Below, in pieces: positions 2,685-53,330 of a stretch of 58,684 nt of DNA. The first letter of the stretch is position 1. The number at the start of each line of letters is the position of its first letter. Source of the stretch: Eubacteriales bacterium. Its GTDB lineage: Bacteria; Bacillota; Clostridia; Oscillospirales; CAG-272. The stretch covers positions 1 to 58,684 of the forward strand of contig JAZOQX010000074.1 of the NCBI GenBank assembly GCA_045656325.1, written 5' to 3'. A program made the position numbers and the translations under genes. The notes under the pieces were generated by a model that worked only from the letters and a program-made list of their open reading frames with translations, was not told the origin of the DNA and searched no databases.

Positions 2685-3887
2685 GTGAATCAAACAAAAG
2701 AACCAAATTTTGATATAATCGCATCGGAGCTGAAAAAGGAATCCCCCCGACTTGGAGATCGAATCCTGCTTTCTCTGATCCTATTTGTGGCATCGGTATA
2801 TCTTCCCCTTGCCGCCGCCCTTCCCATGCCCCCCGAGGCAAAGGAAGCCTTTTCCTTCCTCGTCTGCGCGCTGAGCGTTCTGGCGCAGGCAAGGCTCTCT
2901 AAAAAAATAAGCGCGGGCGTCGGACATGCCGTTCTCCTTCTTCTCGTTGGATTCTTGTTCGGCGGTCCTTACGTTGCCGCGGCTCTTGGCTCCTTGGTCA
3001 GCGTTGCCTGCATTTTTTGCCGTCTCGCTCTGACCACCTCTTCCCTGCTTCCCATCGCAATCCCTGCGGTAGCTTACTTAACGGCGACCGTCGCCGTGGG
3101 CTCTCCCTTTTTAGGAGCGCTGTCCTTAGTGGGAATGCCCCTTGCGCTTTTTCTTCTGCTCTCCGTACGGATGCTTCTGCCCAAGGTGCGCGCCCTCTGT
3201 CTGATCTCCTTTGGAATCGGACTTTCCGCCGCCGTTGCCGCCATCCTCTATCTGCTTCTTGCTCACAACGGCATCAGCGCGGATCTGCTCCGAGAGGGAG
3301 TGGAAGCCCTCCGCGCCCTGCTGACGGAGGAGCTTGAGCTTCGGTTGTCCCTATTGGAGGGAGACGTAAGCGGTCTTCTTCCCTTGGGAATCGGAAAGGA
3401 GGACTACGCGCGGACGCTGGCGAACGAAATTATCAACCATCTTCCCGCTATTCTGATCCTGCTTTGCAACGCGGTTGCGCTGGTGACCCATTCCTCCATG
3501 GTTCGGATCCTGCTCTCGCTCAAGCTTTCCAAGGAGCCTCTCGCTCCCGTGGCGATCTTTGACATGAGCGCTTCCTCCGCCGTCGTCTTCCTTGTGTCCC
3601 TGATCCTTTCTCTGGTTATGAGCGGACCCGATTCGGCAATGGCGGTTGCCGTATGCGAAAATCTATACCTGATTCTCATTCCCGGTATGCTTATTACCCT
3701 TTGGATGGTCCTGAACGCCTTTTTGCTTGCGAAAGCCCCCTCCTGCTTCGGGATCCTTCTGTATCTTGCCCTTCCCTTTTTGTTCTTCCAATTTTCCTCT
3801 GCGCTTCTTCCCATCGGTGCCGTCATCGGCGCAATCCTGATTCTCGTGGGAAAGATCCGCAAAATCCTTCGCGAAAAGAAATCCTGA
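2685..3887 (+). CDS. YybS-like (DUF2232-type) polytopic membrane protein
   Basis: Highly hydrophobic multi-TM ORF directly upstream of gdpP-rplI-dnaB, the position held by yybS in Bacillus. The start is set at GTG 2685 (GAGG RBS) because the predicted promoter lies inside the longer ORF that begins at 2538. ATG 2622 is an alternative start. Confidence 0.6.
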   Translation: MNQTKEPNFDIIASELKKESPRLGDRILLSLILFVASVYLPLAAALPMPPEAKEAFSFLVCALSVLAQARLSKKISAGVGHAVLLLLVGFLFGGPYVAAALGSLVSVACIFCRLALTTSSLLPIAIPAVAYLTATVAVGSPFLGALSLVGMPLALFLLLSVRMLLPKVRALCLISFGIGLSAAVAAILYLLLAHNGISADLLREGVEALRALLTEELELRLSLLEGDVSGLLPLGIGKEDYARTLANEIINHLPAILILLCNAVALVTHSSMVRILLSLKLSKEPLAPVAIFDMSASSAVVFLVSLILSLVMSGPDSAMAVAVCENLYLILIPGMLITLWMVLNAFLLAKAPSCFGILLYLALPFLFFQFSSALLPIGAVIGAILILVGKIRKILREKKS

Positions 3888-11403: not shown

Positions 11404-11503
11404 TCCGCCGCCTGCGGAAGCTGTCCAAGCGCCGCAAATGCTTCTCTGCCTTTTGCCTTCCCCGCTGGCGAAGACTTGCGTGTGCGGTTTCCATAAAACA
11501 ATC

Positions 11504-11540
11504 AAAAGCCCCCGCTCTCTCAAGAAGAGCGGGGGTTTTT
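11504..11540. terminator. Bidirectional intrinsic terminator between ftsH and the convergent lipoprotein gene
   Basis: AAAAGCCCCCGCTCT - loop - AGAGCGGGGGTTTTT; A-run on one side and T-run on the other. Confidence 0.8.
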
Positions 11541-11560
11541 GTCGCAATCGCGTTTTTGTT

Positions 11561-13576
11561 TTATTTGTAGCAATCGTAGATCTGCTGCAAGAAGTTACCA
11601 AGCTTGCTCGCAGCCGCGTCGTAGGTAGACTCGATATCCTTCGTGGGATCCGCGATCAGGTTACGAGGCAGGTAAGTATAATCCGACATATTCAGGATGT
11701 AACCGAACTGCATCGTAGCATCAAAGCTGGGATGCTCCATAATCTTATTAACCATTTTGGCAGTCGCGAGATCCTGAGAGTAACGACCCTTCAAAATTAC
11801 CTCGTAGTACTGGTAGTACAACGTCTCGGAGCTCTCCGCGCAAAGCGCGTCGGTAATGTGCGCCGTGAAGACACGCTCGGTGCTCTTCAAGGAAGTGGGA
11901 AGTCCCCAAATGGTGTAACGGTCGTTCAGCTTGGTACGGTAAACCTCCTGAGAGAGATTATATTTGGGCGTGGGAACGATTCCCAAATTGGACATACCGG
12001 TGATGCCTTCCGCCCCGTATACGTTCTTGAACGAAGAAATGATAAATCCTGCCTCTCCGTTTAAAAACTTCGCCTCTGCATCGACAGCATAAGCATAATT
12101 GCTTCCGTACGCGCACATTGCGTTATCACTGTCGTGGAAAAAATCGCGAAGCTTATTGATGATCGTTGCGTTGGTGGAATCGGTCATGAAGGTAGCGGTA
12201 ATGGTGTCATTCTCCTCCTTTAAGAAGCTACAGTTAAAGGATTCAAACCAAGCGTCCATCGAATTTCCGGTTCTTGCGTAAAATCCAAACACGTCCGACG
12301 CATCCTTTCCCGGCTCACCCTCGTCTTCATAAATCTGTGAAACCAAAGTCTTGAACTTTCCAAAGGTCCAGCTTCCCTTCTCCACGTAGCCGTAAAGCTC
12401 TTCTCTGCTCACGTCGCAGTACTCGTCCAGCAGATCGAGGTTCACGAACATTGCCATAGAAGACTGAAGCTTGGATACGCCAAGGTCGCCCGTCAAGGAA
12501 AGAAGCTTTCCGTTGTAGGTAACCTCATCGTTCAGCATCTTGTCCCAACGCTTGGAATTGGAAAGATCCAAATATTTGGTTCCGTTTTCATCGGTTAGGC
12601 TTCCCAACGCGTTCCAATCCTGGAAGCATCCGTTGATGATAAACTCGCCGACTCTGTACGCGTAATGTCCGTAGATATTGTGCGTGGACATGCCGTTCTT
12701 AATTGCGGGAGATGCATCCGCATAGTAAGAATCGGTGTTCCAGTTCTGATGTACGATCTTTACGTTGAAGGTATCCTGAACCTTCTTCTTCCAACGGTAG
12801 ATAGCATCCCGCTCGAGGTCTGCCGTGATCTTATCGGGATCAAACTGATAGGAATGCTCGGAGTTGGGAAGAGAGATACTGAACTGCTTACCTTCGTAGT
12901 CAGCCTGAGGAAGCTTCTTCAGAATGTCCAGATCGACGTATACTTCTTCCAAATCCGGATCCTCTTCCTCGGGCATATCCAAAACAAACTCTCTGCCGTC
13001 GGTCATTTTAATGACCAACTGACCTTGCTCGTTAAAGGTGATGGACTCAATGGTGGCGCCGGTTTCACCTTGGTCGCCCTTGTCACCCTTATCGCCCTTT
13101 TCGCCTTGGATACCCTGTTCTCCCTGAGTTCCCTCGGCTTTTATGTTGGTGTTGGTATCTCCAATCCACCAATATCCGTCCTTAATGTAGGGGGTCTTTC
13201 CATCCGTGCCGTCTTTTCCGTCCGCGCCATTCTGCACGATCTTGCCCAGATTGATGATGCTCCCGTCCGTAAGAGCGATCAATAAAGTCCCCTCTACCAC
13301 TGTGACTTCCTTGATTCCCACACCGTCCTTGCCAGGGTCACCCTTAACCAGCGCCTTGAATTCCTCAAGGCTTCCCTCGTAGCCGAGAGACACCGCTTTG
13401 GCGTACACCGCTTCGGTAGCGCTCGTAGGAAGCTGCGTCACGTTGCTTTGTTCGTCTTGGACTTCCTCCTCGTTTGGGGCATTTGTCTTTTCGTCCTCCG
13501 TTTGGCAAGAGACCAACGCGCACGCAAGCATTGCCAAGCACAAAAGAATCGCCAGCGCCTTTTTCATGATTGTCAT
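11561..13576 (-). CDS. Lipoprotein with collagen-like Gly-X-Y repeats fused to a large extracellular solute-binding-protein-like domain
   Basis: The start is set at ATG 13576 (GGAGGA RBS 8 nt upstream), giving MTIMKKALAILLCLAMLACALVSC (lipobox). Gly-X-Y runs are present (GTQGEQGIQGEKGDKGDKGDQGETG). The C-terminal ~480 aa resemble large sugar-type SBPs. No permease or ATPase genes are adjacent. Confidence 0.75.
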   Translation of the reverse strand: MTIMKKALAILLCLAMLACALVSCQTEDEKTNAPNEEEVQDEQSNVTQLPTSATEAVYAKAVSLGYEGSLEEFKALVKGDPGKDGVGIKEVTVVEGTLLIALTDGSIINLGKIVQNGADGKDGTDGKTPYIKDGYWWIGDTNTNIKAEGTQGEQGIQGEKGDKGDKGDQGETGATIESITFNEQGQLVIKMTDGREFVLDMPEEEDPDLEEVYVDLDILKKLPQADYEGKQFSISLPNSEHSYQFDPDKITADLERDAIYRWKKKVQDTFNVKIVHQNWNTDSYYADASPAIKNGMSTHNIYGHYAYRVGEFIINGCFQDWNALGSLTDENGTKYLDLSNSKRWDKMLNDEVTYNGKLLSLTGDLGVSKLQSSMAMFVNLDLLDEYCDVSREELYGYVEKGSWTFGKFKTLVSQIYEDEGEPGKDASDVFGFYARTGNSMDAWFESFNCSFLKEENDTITATFMTDSTNATIINKLRDFFHDSDNAMCAYGSNYAYAVDAEAKFLNGEAGFIISSFKNVYGAEGITGMSNLGIVPTPKYNLSQEVYRTKLNDRYTIWGLPTSLKSTERVFTAHITDALCAESSETLYYQYYEVILKGRYSQDLATAKMVNKIMEHPSFDATMQFGYILNMSDYTYLPRNLIADPTKDIESTYDAAASKLGNFLQQIYDCYK
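13055..13342 (-). repeat. Collagen-like triplet-repeat coding region (three Gly-X-Y runs of 3, 4 and 9 triplets)
   Basis: Translation contains GDPGKDGVG, GADGKDGTDGKT and GTQGEQGIQGEKGDKGDKGDQGETGAT. Confidence 0.8.
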
Positions 13577-13637
13577 AGAACATTCCTCCTTTTTGTCCTT
13601 CACTATAAGAAGTCGTATTTTTTCCTTTTTTGTCTCA

Positions 13638-13673
13638 CAAAAAACAAAAAAGTGCGCAGCCGAAGCTACGCAC
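13638..13673 (-). terminator. Intrinsic terminator/attenuator in the leader of the collagen-like lipoprotein gene
   Basis: Minus strand reads GUGCGUAGC-UUCG-GCUGCGCAC followed by UUUUUUGUUUUUU. It lies 60 nt upstream of the ATG. Confidence 0.75.
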
Positions 13674-13813
13674 GAAAAACGCATAGCTCCCATTGCTGCC
13701 ACACAAGTGTTTCGGTACGATCAGGGAAGGTACGCAAAACAAGAGTATGCGTTTTTACCGAGGGTAAAAATAAGCATACCTATCCCATTACCGTTTTATT
13801 CACTTGTGTGGCA
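13638..13813 (-). ncRNA. Candidate structured RNA of ~175 nt (cis-regulatory leader or small RNA): a 117-nt rod-like hairpin plus a terminator
   Basis: A 13-bp perfect closing helix (13813-13801 with 13709-13697) encloses nested helices and an apical hairpin. The predicted TSS falls on the first base of the helix. A UUCG-capped terminator follows. I recognised no known family signature. Confidence 0.45.
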
Positions 13814-13818
13814 ATTTC

Positions 13819-13847
13819 ATTGTAGCACAAAACAAGAGGTTTGTCAA
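13819..13847 (-). promoter_or_regulatory. Sigma-A promoter driving the structured RNA/leader
   Basis: Minus strand reads TTGACA, a 17-nt spacer, then TGcTACAAT (extended -10). Confidence 0.65.
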
Positions 13848-13854
13848 TAAGTTT

Positions 13855-13888
13855 CAAAAAAGCGGGAGGATCTCGTCCTCCCGCTTTT
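13855..13888 (-). terminator. recG intrinsic terminator
   Basis: GCGGGAGGA-tctcg-TCCTCCCGC, followed on the minus strand by UUUUUU. It lies 10 nt after the recG stop. Confidence 0.8.
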
Positions 13889-13896
13889 GCTTAAAT

Positions 13897-16026
13897 TCAA
13901 TTGATGGTTCCCTGCTCGGGTTGAAACATGGCGTTGACCGACTCCGCAAGGATCGGATGCTCCGAAAGACTAGGGTCGGCTTCAATCAAGGCTCTTGCCT
14001 CGCCCATGGCCTTCTTCATCAGTCCCGTGTCGTCGCAAAGCGCTGCTAGACGGAAACGTACTCCGCCGCTTTGACGGAAGCCCTGCTCCCCGCCGCTACG
14101 CAAAAAGTCTCCCGGACCGCGCATCTCCAAATCCCGCTCGGCAATGGAATAGCCGTCATAGCAGTTCTTCATCACCGACAGACGGTTATGCGCCTCGTTC
14201 TCCTCCGTTGCCGCCTCCGACACCAGAACGCAATAGGATTTTCGCCTGCCCCGTCCTACTCTTCCCCGAAGCTGGTGTAGCTGAGAAAGTCCGAATCGGT
14301 CGGCGTTCTCTACGATCATCAAGCAGGCGTTGGGTACGTTGACCCCCACCTCGATCACGGTGGTGGATACCAGCACGTCGATCTCGCCCGAAGAAAAGTC
14401 CCGCATGACCGCGTCCTTTTCGGCGGTCTTCATTTTTCCGTGAACCACCGCCACCCGCAGAGCGGGCAGAGCGGTTGCCAGCTCCTCGGCGTATCCTACC
14501 GCCGATTTTAACGGCGCGCTTCGGCGGACCCGTCCCTCTCCGTCAATATCCGAAAGAGAGAGGTCGGCTTCCTCGTCCTCCCCGTTTTCTTCGATGGAGG
14601 GACAAACCACGTAGACCTGTCCCCCCTCCTCGGTCTGCTTCAAAATAAAATTACGGAGTCGATCGCGGTAGCTCTCGTCCACCACAAAGGTGTCCACCCG
14701 TTGTCTGCCCGCGGGCATCTCGTCCAAGAGCGACACGTCCAGATCTCCGTACAGCGACAGCGCAAGGGTTCTCGGGATCGGGGTCGCGCTCATAACCAGC
14801 ATATGGGAATGACGGTTTTTCTCCGCCAAGGCTGCCCGCTGATTCACGCCGAAGCGGTGCTGCTCATCGGCGACCACCACCCCCGGCGCGGCAAGCTCCA
14901 CGCCATCGGACAGAAGCGCCTGCGTTCCTACCACAAGCGAAATCCGCTCGGCGGGATCGGCGGCGGAAAGCCCCTTATGGATCCTTTTCTTTTCCGATGC
15001 GCTCAGGGAGCCGCAAAGCAATGCGGGTTGAATCCCCATGGGCAAAAACAACTCGCAAAGGTCCGCGTAATGCTGACGCGCCAGAATCTCGGTGGGCGCC
15101 ATCAGCACGGCCTGTCTTCCGTTTTGCAGAGCGATCCACATAGCAATGGCAGCGCACACGGTTTTTCCGCTTCCCACGTCTCCGATGAGGATACGGTTCA
15201 TTGCCTGCCCTCTTTCCATATCGGCGCGGATCTGCTCGGCAACCCGCTTTTGCGCCCCCGTCAGCGCATAGGGGAGACGGTCGCAAAGGCTTTTATACTC
15301 TCCATGAGGACAGGGCTCTGCCTCGATGATCTCTCTTTGCTTTGCGGTTACGGACAAGCCGAGCGAGAAAAGGAAAAATTCCTCGAAGATCAATCGCTTC
15401 TTTGCCGCCGCCAGCGCGGAAAAGCTCTCGGGGGCATGAATGTTACGAATGGCAAAGGAGCGCAGGCAAAGCCCGTGACGGCGGCGAAGCTCGGCGGGAA
15501 GCATATCCTCCTCCCCCTTGACCGACATCAGCGTCAGCGCCGATCTCATATCCTTCGCCAGCTGCTTTTGGGAAAGTCCCTCGGTCAACGGATACACGGG
15601 GACCAAGGGCGGAAGCTCGCTCTCCTCTCTCCATGGCTCATAGGCGGGAGAGGTCATGGCGTATCGGTTATTTTTCCGCTCGACCCGTCCGTAAAAGCGG
15701 AAGGTCGCGCCCAAGGTAAATACGTTTTTCAAAAAATCCTGATTAAAGAAGGTGATTTCGCACACACCGCTATCGTCATAGGCGCGGAATTTGAGCAAGG
15801 ACATTCTTCCCTTCACTCTCGCGCTTCTCGGCTCGGTGGCGACGGTCAGAAGATGGGCGCTCTTACCCACGCCGTCTGTCTCGCTCAGAAGACGGATATT
15901 CCCTCGGTCCTCGTATCCCCTCGGATAATGGACCAAAAGATCCTCTACGGTACGGATCCCCAGCTTTCCGTATGCCTTGGCTCTCGCCTCGCCTACGCCG
16001 TAGAGCTTTTTGATATCGGTGCTCAT
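13897..16026 (-). CDS. recG: ATP-dependent DNA helicase RecG
   Basis: Wedge/OB N-terminus, helicase motif I GDVGSGKT, and motif II DEQHRFG. The start is set at ATG 16026 (MSTDIKKLYGVG) with a GGAGGTGG RBS. Confidence 0.92.
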   Translation of the reverse strand: MSTDIKKLYGVGEARAKAYGKLGIRTVEDLLVHYPRGYEDRGNIRLLSETDGVGKSAHLLTVATEPRSARVKGRMSLLKFRAYDDSGVCEITFFNQDFLKNVFTLGATFRFYGRVERKNNRYAMTSPAYEPWREESELPPLVPVYPLTEGLSQKQLAKDMRSALTLMSVKGEEDMLPAELRRRHGLCLRSFAIRNIHAPESFSALAAAKKRLIFEEFFLFSLGLSVTAKQREIIEAEPCPHGEYKSLCDRLPYALTGAQKRVAEQIRADMERGQAMNRILIGDVGSGKTVCAAIAMWIALQNGRQAVLMAPTEILARQHYADLCELFLPMGIQPALLCGSLSASEKKRIHKGLSAADPAERISLVVGTQALLSDGVELAAPGVVVADEQHRFGVNQRAALAEKNRHSHMLVMSATPIPRTLALSLYGDLDVSLLDEMPAGRQRVDTFVVDESYRDRLRNFILKQTEEGGQVYVVCPSIEENGEDEEADLSLSDIDGEGRVRRSAPLKSAVGYAEELATALPALRVAVVHGKMKTAEKDAVMRDFSSGEIDVLVSTTVIEVGVNVPNACLMIVENADRFGLSQLHQLRGRVGRGRRKSYCVLVSEAATEENEAHNRLSVMKNCYDGYSIAERDLEMRGPGDFLRSGGEQGFRQSGGVRFRLAALCDDTGLMKKAMGEARALIEADPSLSEHPILAESVNAMFQPEQGTIN

Positions 16027-44028: not shown

Positions 44029-44724
44029 ATGTGGAACGGAAAAAACAAGGCGCTGACCATCAGCATGGACGACGGTGTTTTGCAGGACAAGCGCTTCATC
44101 AAGCTGCTCAACCGTTACGGTCTGAAGGCAACCTTTAACATCAATTCCGAGCTGCTTGGCAACAGCAACACCGTTTGGTTTCAGGAAAGAATTTCGGTTG
44201 CCCATTGCAAATTCCGTCCCGAGGAGGTTCGCTCGGTTTACGAGGGACACGAAATCGCGGGACATACGCTCAAGCATCCGCGTCTGACCAAATTGGAGGA
44301 CGACGAGGTGATCCGTCAGGTAGAGGAGGACCGTCTGCGTCTTTCGGAGCTTGCGGGCTATGAGGTGGTAGGCTTCGCCTACCCCTGCGGCGGTGTCAAC
44401 TACGACAGCCGTGTTTCCGGGCTGATTCGAAGCCACACGGGAGCCAAGTACGCAAGAACCATCGCGTCGAACCAAAGCTTTGATCTGCAGGACAACCTCT
44501 TCGAGTTCAAGCCCACCTGCCATATGATCCGCTTTGACGATGCCTTTGCCCGCGCCGAGGAGTTCTTGGATCTGACTCCCGAAACACCGAAGCTCTTCTA
44601 TATTTGGGGTCATTCCTACGAATTTGATATTGAGGACACGTGGGACAAGGTGGAGGAGCTCTTCCGCTTGATCTCGGCAAGGAACGATATCTTTTACGGC
44701 ACCAACAAGGAAATTCTCTTATAA
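44029..44724 (+). CDS. Polysaccharide deacetylase (CE4/NodB homology domain)
   Basis: SMDDG (TFDDG-like) and GHTLKHP (HxxxH) metal-binding motifs. 6 nt after uxaC. Confidence 0.75.
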   Translation: MWNGKNKALTISMDDGVLQDKRFIKLLNRYGLKATFNINSELLGNSNTVWFQERISVAHCKFRPEEVRSVYEGHEIAGHTLKHPRLTKLEDDEVIRQVEEDRLRLSELAGYEVVGFAYPCGGVNYDSRVSGLIRSHTGAKYARTIASNQSFDLQDNLFEFKPTCHMIRFDDAFARAEEFLDLTPETPKLFYIWGHSYEFDIEDTWDKVEELFRLISARNDIFYGTNKEILL

Positions 44725-44725
44725 T

Positions 44726-44762
44726 AAAAAAGAACCAAGTTCATTGAACTTGGTTCTTTTTT
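44726..44762. terminator. Bidirectional terminator
   Basis: AAAAAGAACCAAGTTCA-t-TGAACTTGGTTCTTTTTT. Confidence 0.8.
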
Positions 44763-44765
44763 ATC

Positions 44766-53258: not shown

Positions 53259-53276
53259 GCACTTGACGCTCGCGTA

Positions 53277-53330
53277 TTGACAAGATTTTTCACGTATGAT
53301 ATATTGACAAGATTTTTCACGTATGATATA
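53277..53330 (+). repeat. Perfect 27-bp tandem duplication that generates two in-phase consensus promoters
   Basis: TTGACAAGATTTTTCACGTATGATATA occurs twice. Copy 1 reads TTGACA-17-TATATT. Copy 2 reads TTGACA-17-TATAAT (the -10 ends at 53332). Confidence 0.9.

Follow-up and report, generated by a model that had tools for sequence, protein, structure and literature searches.

A structured leader RNA travels with accessory cassettes of gut Clostridia and phages and may act as a transcription attenuator

We analyzed a stretch of 58,684 nucleotides from a member of the Eubacteriales (here called the window) in which a structured RNA of approximately 170 nt lies between recG and a gene for a lipoprotein, the cargo gene. 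In the order of transcription, the features of this locus are:

16065-13897, minus strand: recG open reading frame, upstream of the leader
13887-13856, minus strand: putative intrinsic terminator of recG, AAAGCGGGAGGA-CGAGA-TCCTCCCGCTTT followed by a T-run
13847-13819, minus strand: promoter, with -35 TTGACA (13847-13842), a 17-nt spacer, extended -10 TG (13827-13826) and -10 TACAAT (13824-13819)
13813-13801, minus strand: 5' arm of helix P1, UGCCACACAAGUG, at or no more than 1-2 nt from the predicted transcription start
13794-13774, minus strand: 5' strand of the rod, with the P2 5' arm (about 13794-13790) and the P3 5' arm, A1, GGGA(U)AGGUAUGC (13786-13774)
13770-13752, minus strand: apical hairpin P4, with UUUUUACC (13770-13763), loop CUC (13762-13760) and GGUAAAAA (13759-13752)
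13751-13736, minus strand: loop L, CGCAUACUCUUGUUUU, a 16-nt internal loop on the 3' side of the rod
13735-13714, minus strand: 3' strand of the rod, with the P3 3' arm, B2, GCGUACCUUCCC (13735-13724) and the P2 3' arm
13709-13697, minus strand: 3' arm of P1, CACUUGUGUGGCA
13696-13675, minus strand: switch strand A2, GCAAUGGGAGCUAUGCGUUUUU, containing an invariant AGCAA, GGAG and U-run
13673-13638, minus strand: intrinsic terminator GUGCGUAGC-UUCG-GCUGCGCAC (13673-13652) with its U-tract (13651-13638)
13590-11561, minus strand: cargo gene, with Shine-Dalgarno sequence AGGAGG (13590-13585) and ATG at 13576

The leader has a strong promoter of its own. This near-consensus promoter, which the original prediction (an earlier reading of the letters by a model) had placed at the same site, scores 11/12, has an extended -10, and is the sole promoter-like site between 13300 and 14200. 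Expression of the cargo gene must depend on read-through because no other promoter was found in that interval, and on this point too the original prediction stands. The distance from the end of the -10 hexamer to the start of the rod (column 1 of the model) is exactly 5 nt in every lineage described below. The recG terminator is predicted from a reading of the sequence to shield the leader unit from upstream transcription, and equivalent upstream terminators were found in two other members of the family, L018 and L037.

The cargo gene and its leader form a low-GC island. The RNA and the gene together have a GC content of 46-50%, versus 58-60% in the flanks, and the cassette is missing at the same locus in the closest relatives, including L003, in which recG is convergent with ftsH and there is no RNA element. 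The cargo product (671 amino acids) is a lipoprotein with a signal peptide, the lipobox LVSC, a collagen-like N-terminal part with Gly-X-Y repeats, and a 460-amino acid C-terminal domain. The match to Pfam Collagen is weak (E = 7e-4) and under the family cut-off.

The leader RNA folds into a long rod. The window has exactly two copies of the 13-mer TGCCACACAAGTG, one at 13813-13801 on the minus strand and the other, as the complement, at 13697-13709, and these form the arms of the perfect 13-bp helix that had been predicted to close the rod. The minimum free energy (MFE) structure of 13813-13638 (-69.2 kcal/mol, z = -7.5, with 0/200 shuffled sequences folding equally well) consists of P1 (13 bp), P2 (5 bp), P3 (12 bp with one bulged U), the 16-nt loop on the 3' side, and the UUUUUACC-CUC-GGUAAAAA hairpin, and thus reproduces the rod of the original prediction. 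The P2 helix is present, one nucleotide out of the register that had been proposed (ACGGU/AUCGU by RNAfold and CGGUA/UACCG in the original prediction), and its register is not kept among homologues.

The RNA is a member of a family that had not been catalogued. Using pattern scans, BLAST and covariance models (covariance model scores of 54-174 bits), we located 14 further instances: one in a metagenome contig, two in human-gut scaffolds, and 11 in IMG/VR phage contigs. These bring the total to 15 instances in nine distinct lineages, including the window. Every lineage has the promoter, the rod, the terminator and then a co-oriented gene, in the same orientation in 15/15 instances, and covariance model matches on the reverse strand score far below those on the sense strand. 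The RNA of the window is 88% identical to that of L018, while third codon positions of ftsH are 47% identical; we count this as a sign that the RNA is probably under selection. Rfam 15, with its T-box, 6S, SRP, ydaO, c-di-GMP-I/II, L20 leader and EAR families, gave no match at the gathering threshold in the whole window. When four members were scanned by E-value, the matches were all sub-threshold and to unrelated hairpin families, with no family recurring across the four on the sense strand. The earlier failure to match the element to T-box, 6S, SRP or ydaO RNAs agrees with these scans, and literature searches found no published description of the leader. We conclude that this structured leader RNA is real, previously uncatalogued, and travels with accessory cassettes of gut Clostridia and of their phages.

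The leader is not bound to one chromosomal neighborhood or one kind of cargo. It was in none of ten loci syntenic for recG, with RecG up to 89% identical, nor in the loci L020-L034 syntenic for ftsH. Two of the recG loci, L007 and L011, have a promoter and a distant lipoprotein gene and no leader. A tie to collagen-like lipoproteins, which the original prediction had proposed to follow through the intergenic regions of homologues, was not found: genes for homologues of the window lipoprotein (52-73% identity) have no leader and lie a short distance downstream of AraC-type regulators or of other genes, and the other members of the family precede unrelated genes. The genes behind the leader encode lipoproteins, an LRR protein, a zinc-ribbon membrane protein, small phage membrane proteins, a 355-amino acid cytosolic-looking protein, and early phage proteins, and they have no common function or domain. 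On phage contigs some members adjoin holin or amidase genes and others are within early regions; in L038 an integrase gene is 1.6 kb away. No candidate effector is conserved near the leader among the members. Several searches were uninformative or returned nothing: matches to the LRR lipoprotein of L018 were dominated by repeats, window-specific DNA patterns had no match in IMG/VR, plasmid searches gave nothing related to the leader, and the pattern AAACGCATAC...GCTATGCGTTT gave only chance matches within coding DNA.

The rod is conserved as a structure. In the alignment of the family (A8), 96.4% of the rod cells are paired, with compensatory changes at 14 pairs, and controls in which the partner strand was slid gave 42-58% pairing. 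The covariation score is 0.425 versus 0.155 in shuffles (0/500 as high), a comparison in which the shuffles ignore phylogeny, the lineages are only nine and related, and A8 had itself been fitted to the model of the rod. Across the 12 sequences of A8, pairing in P1 is 100%, with compensatory changes in five of its 12 pairs; P3 covaries; and the P4 stem is kept among lineages with a free loop sequence (CUC, UUUG, UACG or AUUU). The original prediction had made its candidate RNA depend on conservation and covariation in related genomes; homologues were found, and their rods covary.

The terminator and an antiterminator that excludes it are both conserved. The UUCG-capped terminator and U-run that had been predicted in the window are borne out, with a 9-bp stem and a T-run after it, and a terminator follows the rod in 9/9 lineages; its pairing is 100% in the first four members. 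A2 is complementary to B3, which comprises the terminator's 5' arm and its loop. The antiterminator, for which 8 nt of pairing had been proposed, is real and longer: it is an 11-bp helix of GGAGCUAUGCG with UGCGUAGCUUC that is included in the MFE structure of the window leader. A helix of 11-16 bp between A2 and the terminator arm is in the MFE structure of the leader prefix in 9/9 lineages, and all antiterminator cells are paired in the first four members. Cognate duplexes of A2 with the terminator arm were stronger than permuted pairings, with 0.2% of 40,320 permutations equal to them. Thus, in 9/9 lineages a hairpin and U-tract lie between promoter and open reading frame, as in intrinsic-terminator attenuators generally, and a mutually exclusive upstream antiterminator is conserved in the homologues. 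In 7/9 lineages, no more than 3 kcal/mol separates the terminator conformer from the antiterminator conformer. In L045 and L041 the terminator is more stable by 7-8 kcal/mol, and therefore the balance of states is not universal.

A2 can also pair with loop L of the rod, which, with the A-run before it, would be the anti-antiterminator. In the window, the A2:L duplex has an energy of -22.0 kcal/mol (RNAduplex), a value reached by 0-6 of 1000 shuffles, and a duplex of 15-21 bp (-14.6 to -20.2 kcal/mol) is kept in every lineage. In the alignment, 93% of the L:A2 cells are paired versus 87% in shuffles (0/500), and nine cells have double changes versus 4.0 expected (0/500 shuffles); these shuffles, too, ignore phylogeny. 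Cognate L:A2 pairs are better than permuted ones, and 0.02% of permutations do equally well. The A-run of P4 pairs with the U5 of A2; in most lineages the antiterminator leaves this invariant U5 in its loop, so that only pairing with the A-run explains the conservation of U5. The original prediction had noted that the segment after the rod resembles the 5' strand of the rod and suggested strand exchange. The resemblance is there, and the partner is different: A2 pairs best with L and the adjoining A-run and not with the 3' arm of the rod, in a search that covered the whole rod in the first four members and the L region in the other lineages. Exchange with the 3' arm was accordingly rejected.

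A2 co-evolves with two mutually exclusive partners, the 5' arm of the terminator and loop L. In a three-way covariation table, changes in A2 come with matching changes in both L and the terminator arm. A role of the 16-nt asymmetric loop as a sensor pocket, as the original prediction might have it, does not fit these data: the variable positions of L track A2, and therefore L is a pairing partner. A rough sum of helix energies puts the rod with L:A2 and the terminator 2.5-22 kcal/mol below the rod with P4 and the antiterminator, before any penalty for a pseudoknot. Nearest-neighbor folding, which is pseudoknot-free, always favors the rod with the antiterminator or the rod with the terminator.

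We believe, with a probability of about 0.58, that the RNA is the leader of a self-contained, horizontally mobile cassette and functions as an intrinsic-terminator attenuator with three competing helices. This reading draws on the anatomy and conservation of the leader, the covariation of the rod, the co-evolution of A2 with both partners, the exclusivity and near-equal stabilities of the helices, and the mobile and phage context. The cassette would consist of an upstream terminator, a strong promoter, the leader RNA, and one or a few accessory genes. Transcription would begin on the first bases of the very stable rod (P1-P3-P4), and the next 22 nt would be A2. If A2 paired with B3, the antiterminator would form and RNA polymerase would enter the cargo gene. 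If A2 paired instead with the A-run and loop L, the terminator arm would be free to form the UUCG-type hairpin and an RNA of approximately 170 nt would be released. L is transcribed ahead of A2 and the terminator arm behind it, and we infer that capture by L, and hence termination, would be the first option of A2; occupying L or locking hairpin P4 would then turn the cargo gene on. This direction of regulation, like the choice between action in cis and in trans, comes from the model. L may capture A2 in cis by a fold-back pseudoknot, which would need a sharp turn because L is separated from A2 by 27-34 bp of helix. Alternatively, L may act between molecules, with the released short RNA pairing with nascent leaders, in a manner that would resemble the P4 CI RNA or antisense attenuation in plasmids.

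The proposed attenuator has the logic of known leaders and differs in its parts. As in the Bacillus subtilis pyr leader (PyrR) and segments 1-4 of the Escherichia coli trp leader, an arm of the terminator is taken by an antiterminator strand, and that strand can itself be taken by an earlier segment, with the decision made during transcription. Unlike those leaders, this one has no leader peptide, PyrR, TRAP or RAT motif, and its earliest partner is inside a long rod, approximately 30 bp from the switch strand.

Action between molecules could make the leader a circuit of RNA alone. The released RNA would set termination on nascent leaders of the same or related elements through L-A2 contacts, sensing dosage or conferring immunity with no protein or metabolite; we regard this more specific version as possible, though rather unlikely. 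The co-varying middle of L and A2 would then define orthogonal specificity groups, parallel to plasmid incompatibility groups or P4-type immunity. In plasmids pT181, pIP501 and pAMbeta1, a strand of the nascent leader picks either a pre-emptor (antiterminator) or the terminator, and termination is forced when a complementary RNA captures this strand, so that gene dosage is sensed. The regulator in these plasmids is a countertranscript from the opposite strand, whereas L, the complementary segment in our leader, belongs to the sense transcript itself. The CI RNA of satellite phage P4, in which seqB pairs with seqA and seqC, and Gifsy-1 IsrK provide phage-borne examples, with short and read-through forms from one promoter (PMC4825925). 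Like our leader, each is a phage-borne leader that carries a short RNA and its own complementary sites, and, as is proposed for ours, RNA-RNA pairing within or between leader copies controls termination or phage gene expression. However, their hosts are unrelated Gram-negative bacteria, and neither their sequences nor their structures are homologous to ours; the CI RNA arises by processing and its pairing promotes termination elsewhere, whereas action of our leader in trans is hypothetical.

A switch of this kind could be of use in accounting for accessory genes. Gut bacteria acquire accessory genes, among them genes for surface proteins, from phage morons and small genomic islands, and the control of these genes is mostly obscure. 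The leader appears to be a portable control module (promoter, leader and terminator) that is found before unrelated cargo in ruminant and human gut Clostridia and in their phages, and it may be a Gram-positive case of termination control by RNA only. If the switch senses copy number, superinfection or a host signal, it could explain the timing of surface display by lysogens. Its three co-evolving helices offer a clean model for co-transcriptional RNA switching, and it could serve as a compact regulatory part in engineering of Clostridia. For annotation, it adds an RNA family missing from Rfam that marks the 5' boundary of accessory cassettes.

The original prediction left open whether the element was a riboswitch-type leader or a small RNA. 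The promoter-to-terminator RNA with a terminator/antiterminator pair was found as described; a metabolite riboswitch is argued against by the mixed set of cargo genes, and a stand-alone small RNA is made unlikely by the constant co-orientation with the downstream gene.

In a ligand riboswitch, the rod and its asymmetric loop would be the aptamer, and a ligand bound at L would free A2 for the antiterminator. The arrangement of sensor, switch strand and terminator is indeed riboswitch-like, the states are nearly isoenergetic, and no known family matches. L also has an invariant core (CUCU...UUU), of which the CUCU is unpaired with a probability of approximately 0.9 in ensembles of the rod only. 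c-di-GMP riboswitches control surface proteins in Clostridia, and like the riboswitches of the c-di-GMP classes that act on transcription, the leader joins a structured domain to a terminator/antiterminator platform, with some surface-protein cargo. However, L changes together with A2 at its variable positions, which is what a strand of a helix, and not a pocket, should do, the strand opposite L is only 0-3 unconserved nucleotides, and no conserved unpaired pocket or functionally coherent gene set was found. The rod helices (12-20 bp) are so stable that they would need no ligand, and phages and mobile islands would be unusual carriers for a metabolite sensor. We consider a riboswitch doubtful.

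We consider it similarly improbable that the product of approximately 170 nt is a small RNA acting in trans, with A2 or L as the seed and read-through as an incidental event. Its strong promoter and terminator would suit such an RNA, as would the usual order of elements in small RNAs, with a stem at the 5' end, then a conserved single-stranded stretch, then a terminator with a U tail, and prophage small RNAs with both short and read-through forms are known (IsrK; PMC4825925). The orientation of the neighboring gene would be expected to vary, but in 9/9 lineages the leader is co-oriented with and directly upstream of an abutting promoter-less gene, with only 6-8 nt between the U-tract and the Shine-Dalgarno sequence in L018 and L037, and a pure stand-alone small RNA is unlikely for this reason. 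A seed alone would not require that the complementarity of A2 to the terminator arm co-evolve, and complements of A2 in the window are at the level expected by chance (six found versus 4.3 expected).

The attenuator model with three helices does not account for the strong conservation of the primary sequence of P1. Columns 3 and 5-10 (C-ACACAA) are invariant, and seven of the 12 pairs are invariant across all lineages, more than pairing requires. This would fit antitermination that depends on a factor (put/nut/qut-like or an RNA-binding protein) reading CCACACAA/UUGUGUGG of P1 and the adjacent AUA loop; RNA polymerase itself or a host or phage protein would be the recognizer and decide whether the terminator is obeyed. 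As in HK022 put, the rod begins at +1, immediately after a strong promoter, and many members of the family are in phage genomes. Against this, there is no protein gene common to the neighborhoods of the leader, and a processive antiterminator needs neither a co-evolving antiterminator helix nor pairing of L with A2. Factor-dependent antitermination seems to us about as unlikely as the two preceding alternatives.

A DNA switch would read the arms of P1 as recombinase repeats. There is a precedent in Clostridioides difficile cwpV, with 21-bp inverted repeats, a 195-bp segment and an orientation-dependent terminator (PMC2784873). Like the leader, the cwpV (Cdi1) and flgB (Cdi4) elements lie behind a constitutive promoter and ahead of an open reading frame for a surface protein and are flanked by inverted repeats; as is proposed for the leader, they stop transcription early in the 5' UTR (PMC2784873). 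In the leader, inversion would put the complement in place of L and so take away the decoy of A2, which is indeed without a partner in versions inverted in silico; inverted repeats of 13-14 bp lie between a promoter and surface-protein genes, and P1 is conserved in sequence with compensatory changes that are mostly transversions. Six lineages have perfect repeats (12-14 bp). In the other three, the L044 group (L044, L042 and L047), the P1 helix is extended only by U.G pairs, and therefore P1 is an RNA helix there and not a strict DNA repeat. We find inversion very unlikely: cwpV and flgB switch by DNA inversion, but the leader has one orientation in all instances of the nine lineages, the RNA hairpin of its interior is specific to one strand, contains G.U pairs and loses 5-17 kcal/mol on inversion in silico, that interior (76-91 bp) is shorter than the segments of C. 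difficile cwpV (195 bp) and flgB (154 bp) and E. coli fim (314 bp), and no small invertase gene is nearby, the integrase gene of L038 being the one recombinase gene noted.

Four other kinds of element were considered and rejected. For a T-box, RF00230 had no match at E ≤ 10 in any scanned member, the apical loops, of only 3-4 nt, are not conserved, and a 7-nt bulge is missing from the antiterminator. For a leader peptide, there is no conserved open reading frame: an 18-codon frame is present in the window and L018, but in different frames over the conserved segment, L037 lacks it, and the rod of L038 has no AUG. For a retron, there is no reverse-transcriptase gene in the window, L018, L037, L038 or L044, and those in some phage contigs are approximately 3 kb away on the opposite strand. 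For a MITE, there is one copy in the 58.7-kb window and none elsewhere in approximately 560 kb of related loci, and the position of the leader is fixed at +1 of its promoter.

We conclude that the leader is best modelled as a three-way switch that attenuates transcription, a reading that draws on its anatomy, conservation, covariation, mutually exclusive helices, and context in nine related lineages. The features in the window are:

13897, minus strand: stop of recG
13887-13856, minus strand: recG terminator
13847-13819, minus strand: promoter TTGACA-17-TGcTACAAT (11/12 score, extended -10)
13813-13801 and 13709-13697, minus strand: the two arms of P1, the closing helix of the 5' hairpin (the rod)
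within the rod, minus strand: apical hairpin P4, UUUUUACC-CUC-GGUAAAAA, in the minimum free energy (MFE) fold
13696-13675, minus strand: A2, the switch strand after the rod
13673-13652, minus strand: terminator, with T-run

The elements drawn in the original prediction held up. The 176-nt stretch downstream of the promoter had an MFE of -69.2 kcal/mol (z = -7.5; 0 of 200 shuffles as good), and this fold and a promoter scan reproduced the proposed promoter, rod, 13-bp helix, and apical hairpin. The terminator and its T-run were likewise confirmed, and there was no second promoter-like site within 13300-14200. P1 is a perfect 13-bp helix whose 13-mer is found only at 13813-13801, with its complement at 13709-13697. 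The rod interior consists of a short helix P2, P3 (12 bp, with a single bulge), and a 16-nt internal loop on the 3' side (L). The proposed antiterminator was also recovered: A2 pairs with the terminator 5' arm and loop (together, B3) over 11 bp in the MFE and all prefix folds.

The element did not match a known RNA family. In Rfam 15, no family reached the gathering score anywhere in the window, and permissive scans of the element and three homologues gave only sub-threshold, inconsistent matches to generic hairpin families, in line with the earlier suggestion that the RNA might be new. Because of this, the T-box, 6S, SRP, ydaO, and c-di-GMP classes are excluded as far as Rfam models can see.

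Relatives of the RNA were found through DNA patterns and not through proteins encoded nearby. The original prediction proposed looking for conservation upstream of orthologous lipoproteins; instead, the lipoprotein homologues are preceded by AraC-type regulators, without a leader RNA. The RNA was also absent at the equivalent locus in relatives reached via RecG and FtsH. In L003 (RecG 89% identical), recG directly meets a convergent ftsH, and in the metagenome-assembled genome whose FtsH is closest (91% identical), a promoter and, some distance away, a lipoprotein gene come after recG, with no leader. A metagenome scan for both P1 arms yielded contig L018, and BLAST against a phage collection yielded two human-gut scaffolds, L037 and L038. 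A pattern made of the columns invariant in the window and these three members picked up 11 IMG/VR contigs, each of which a covariance model confirmed (54-76 bits), for a total of 15 instances in nine distinct lineages. The window carries no second copy, and none was present in ~560 kb of related loci.

Several observations concern individual members. The P1-arm pattern also caught ~30-nt tandem-repeat arrays with CCACACAAGTG (L017, about 1290-1530; L019, about 160-480) that are unrelated to the RNA. The INPHARED records for L037 (MT835845.1) and L038 (MT837627.1), labelled 'UNVERIFIED Bacteriophage sp.', are not phage-like genomes: L037 resembles a bacterial chromosome (ClpB-like, ComEC-like lipoprotein, and YicC-like genes) and L038 an integrative element (a tyrosine integrase and an unknown 436-aa protein). 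L038 alone has a promoter-like TTGGCA-16-TGcTAAACT inside the rod (3022-3049), over the last part of L and the 3' strand of P3, that would yield a transcript without the rod 5' strand and L. In the window, an ORF that opens at GTG 13702, inside the P1 3' arm, reads in frame across A2 and the terminator and joins the lipoprotein ORF (13702-11561, minus strand). Such an ORF is also present in L037 (2135-3259) but absent from L018 and L038, so it is probably due to chance.

The rod is conserved in structure and position. In all nine lineages, the first model column follows the end of the -10 hexamer by exactly 5 nt, and therefore the rod is predicted to be at the extreme 5' end of the transcript. 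All lineages have 27-34 bp between the rod base and L, the linker AGCAA, A2, in which GGAG and a U-run are invariant, and a terminator with a U-tract followed by a co-oriented gene. The covariation among relatives that the original prediction called for was found: in a 12-sequence alignment (A8), which was fitted to the rod model so that its counts lean towards that structure, 96.4% of rod cells were paired (42-58% in slid-partner controls), 14 pairs had compensatory changes (61 cells), and the covariation score was 0.425 versus 0.155 in shuffles (0 of 500 reached it). The RNAs of the window and L018 are 88% identical, compared to 73.5% for FtsH and 47% for its third codon positions. As the cargo genes (those behind the leader) are unrelated, this similarity suggests either that the constraint is very strong or that the leader was recently transferred by itself. 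In four phage contigs (L045, L046, L041, L043), a TTTTTCGCGGAAAATATTTACT-like region 40-60 nt upstream of the RNA, before the -35 box, is conserved across otherwise different lineages, suggesting a shared operator or UP element.

A2 can pair with either B3 or the P4 A-run plus L; the two pairings are mutually exclusive, and both partners co-evolve with A2. All nine lineages had the A2:B3 antiterminator (11-16 bp) in the prefix MFE, and in the first four members it was fully paired. Its cognate duplexes summed to -113.6 kcal/mol versus -94.2 +/- 6.1 when permuted between lineages (0.2% of 40,320 permutations as good). The duplex of A2 with the A-run and L (15-21 bp, -14.6 to -20.2 kcal/mol) was found in every lineage, with a cognate sum of -132.7 versus -96.9 +/- 9.5 kcal/mol permuted (0.02% as good). 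On A8, 93.1% of L:A2 cells pair versus 87.0% in shuffles, with 9 double changes versus 4.0 expected (0 of 500 for each). A column-by-column comparison shows three-way covariation; for example, G to A in A2 (A8 column 154) is matched by C to U, and U to C (column 151) by A to G, in L and B3 alike. The invariant U5 of A2 falls in the antiterminator loop in most lineages, and its conservation is thus explained only by pairing with the A-run. The CUCU core of L is unpaired with a probability of about 0.9 in rod-only ensembles. The asymmetric loop of the original prediction is present, but it has a role not drawn there: because it co-evolves with A2, and the adjacent A-run accounts for U5, L is a strand of a helix (an anti-antiterminator) rather than an evident pocket for a ligand.

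The following account of the direction of regulation, of action in cis or in trans, and of what would set the switch is inferred. Capture of A2 by L would allow the terminator to form and release an RNA of ~170 nt; pairing of A2 with the terminator arm would give read-through into the cargo gene. RNA polymerase makes L first, then A2, and then the terminator arm, so capture by L would come first among the options. The cargo gene would be turned on by anything that occupied L or locked P4. L could act in cis or in trans, in the latter case with the released RNA acting on nascent leaders, much as P4 CI RNA acts on seqA and seqC and the short form of IsrK on its own read-through form (PMC4825925).

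Full-length terminator and antiterminator conformers were within 3 kcal/mol of each other in seven of nine lineages; the terminator was favored by 7-8 kcal/mol in L045 and L041. Nested folding cannot evaluate L:A2 with an intact rod (a pseudoknot arrangement), and forcing it as a nested helix melts the rod at a loss of 15-18 kcal/mol. By a rough sum, the rod without P4, plus L:A2 and the terminator, is 2.5-22 kcal/mol below the rod with P4 and the antiterminator, before any pseudoknot or steric penalty. For a cis L:A2 helix, P1 would have to bend at the conserved (A/U)AUA internal loop and lie back along P3, which may be possible; pairing between molecules is free of this problem.

The RNA is carried by phages and mobile cassettes of gut Clostridia. 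The cassette in the window is an insertion, as judged from its low GC (46-50% for the RNA and lipoprotein gene, 11500-13900, versus 58-60% in flanking recG and ftsH) and the absence of the RNA at the equivalent locus in the closest relatives; no integrase or flanking repeat was seen at this island. The cargo is a collagen-like lipoprotein in the window, a BspA-type LRR lipoprotein in L018, another lipoprotein in L037, and a zinc-ribbon membrane protein then a lipoprotein in L038, with a tyrosine integrase 1.6 kb away. In one IMG/VR group, the RNA and a single gene of 99-152 aa, often with an N-terminal membrane helix, form a stand-alone unit between Arc-like repressor genes and a convergent tail-completion gene, amidase, and holin, a classical moron position. 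In another, the RNA is part of an early region with the same orientation, where it has nucleotide-metabolism genes around it and VRR-NUC-type nuclease genes downstream, and the gene directly after it differs between otherwise near-identical phages. Because the cargo varies in this way, the RNA marks the start of interchangeable accessory cassettes.

Among other readings, factor-dependent antitermination would account for the invariance of the P1 sequence, but the neighborhoods have no gene in common. A metabolite riboswitch is weakened by the incoherent cargo set and by the covariation of L as a helix strand, and a stand-alone sRNA by the fixed co-orientation with promoter-less cargo genes, the co-evolving antiterminator, and the lack of A2 targets above chance in the window. 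The fold is strand-specific; in-silico inversion of the interior costs 5-17 kcal/mol, and covariance-model matches on the reverse strand score far below sense matches. An invertible switch of the cwpV type (PMC2784873) is at odds with this specificity, with the single orientation of all instances, and with U.G pairs in P1 of one group. A leader peptide, T-box, MITE, and retron were each ruled out on a defining feature tested here. Overall, the finding is real and of more interest than a single orphan hairpin. The element is a new RNA family that would act by terminator/antiterminator attenuation, an established mode of regulation, with an unusual co-evolving switch of three partners.

Other features were found near the RNA and elsewhere in the window. 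Phage contigs with the RNA encode a reverse transcriptase (phrog_1423, E = 1e-102; L046 3967-5136, minus strand; equivalents in L041, L043, L045, and L050), a few genes past the holin and amidase and ~3 kb away from the RNA on the other strand, that may belong to a diversity-generating retroelement. The C-terminal domain of the window lipoprotein matches no Pfam or NCBIfam family; ~540-aa homologues of it directly follow AraC/HTH_18 regulator genes in L001, L013, L015, and L016 and precede large genes, which in L001 and L016 have weak or faint Pfam matches to Lactamase_B. At 53275-53328 in the window, the 27-nt unit TATTGACAAGATTTTTCACGTATGATA is perfectly duplicated in tandem (family D12), giving two head-to-tail promoter-like copies of TTGACA-17-TATGAT. 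A perfect 20+20-nt palindrome at 44724-44764 (ATAAAAAAGAACCAAGTTCA/TGAACTTGGTTCTTTTTTAT; I12) is flanked on each side by A/T runs and resembles a bidirectional terminator.
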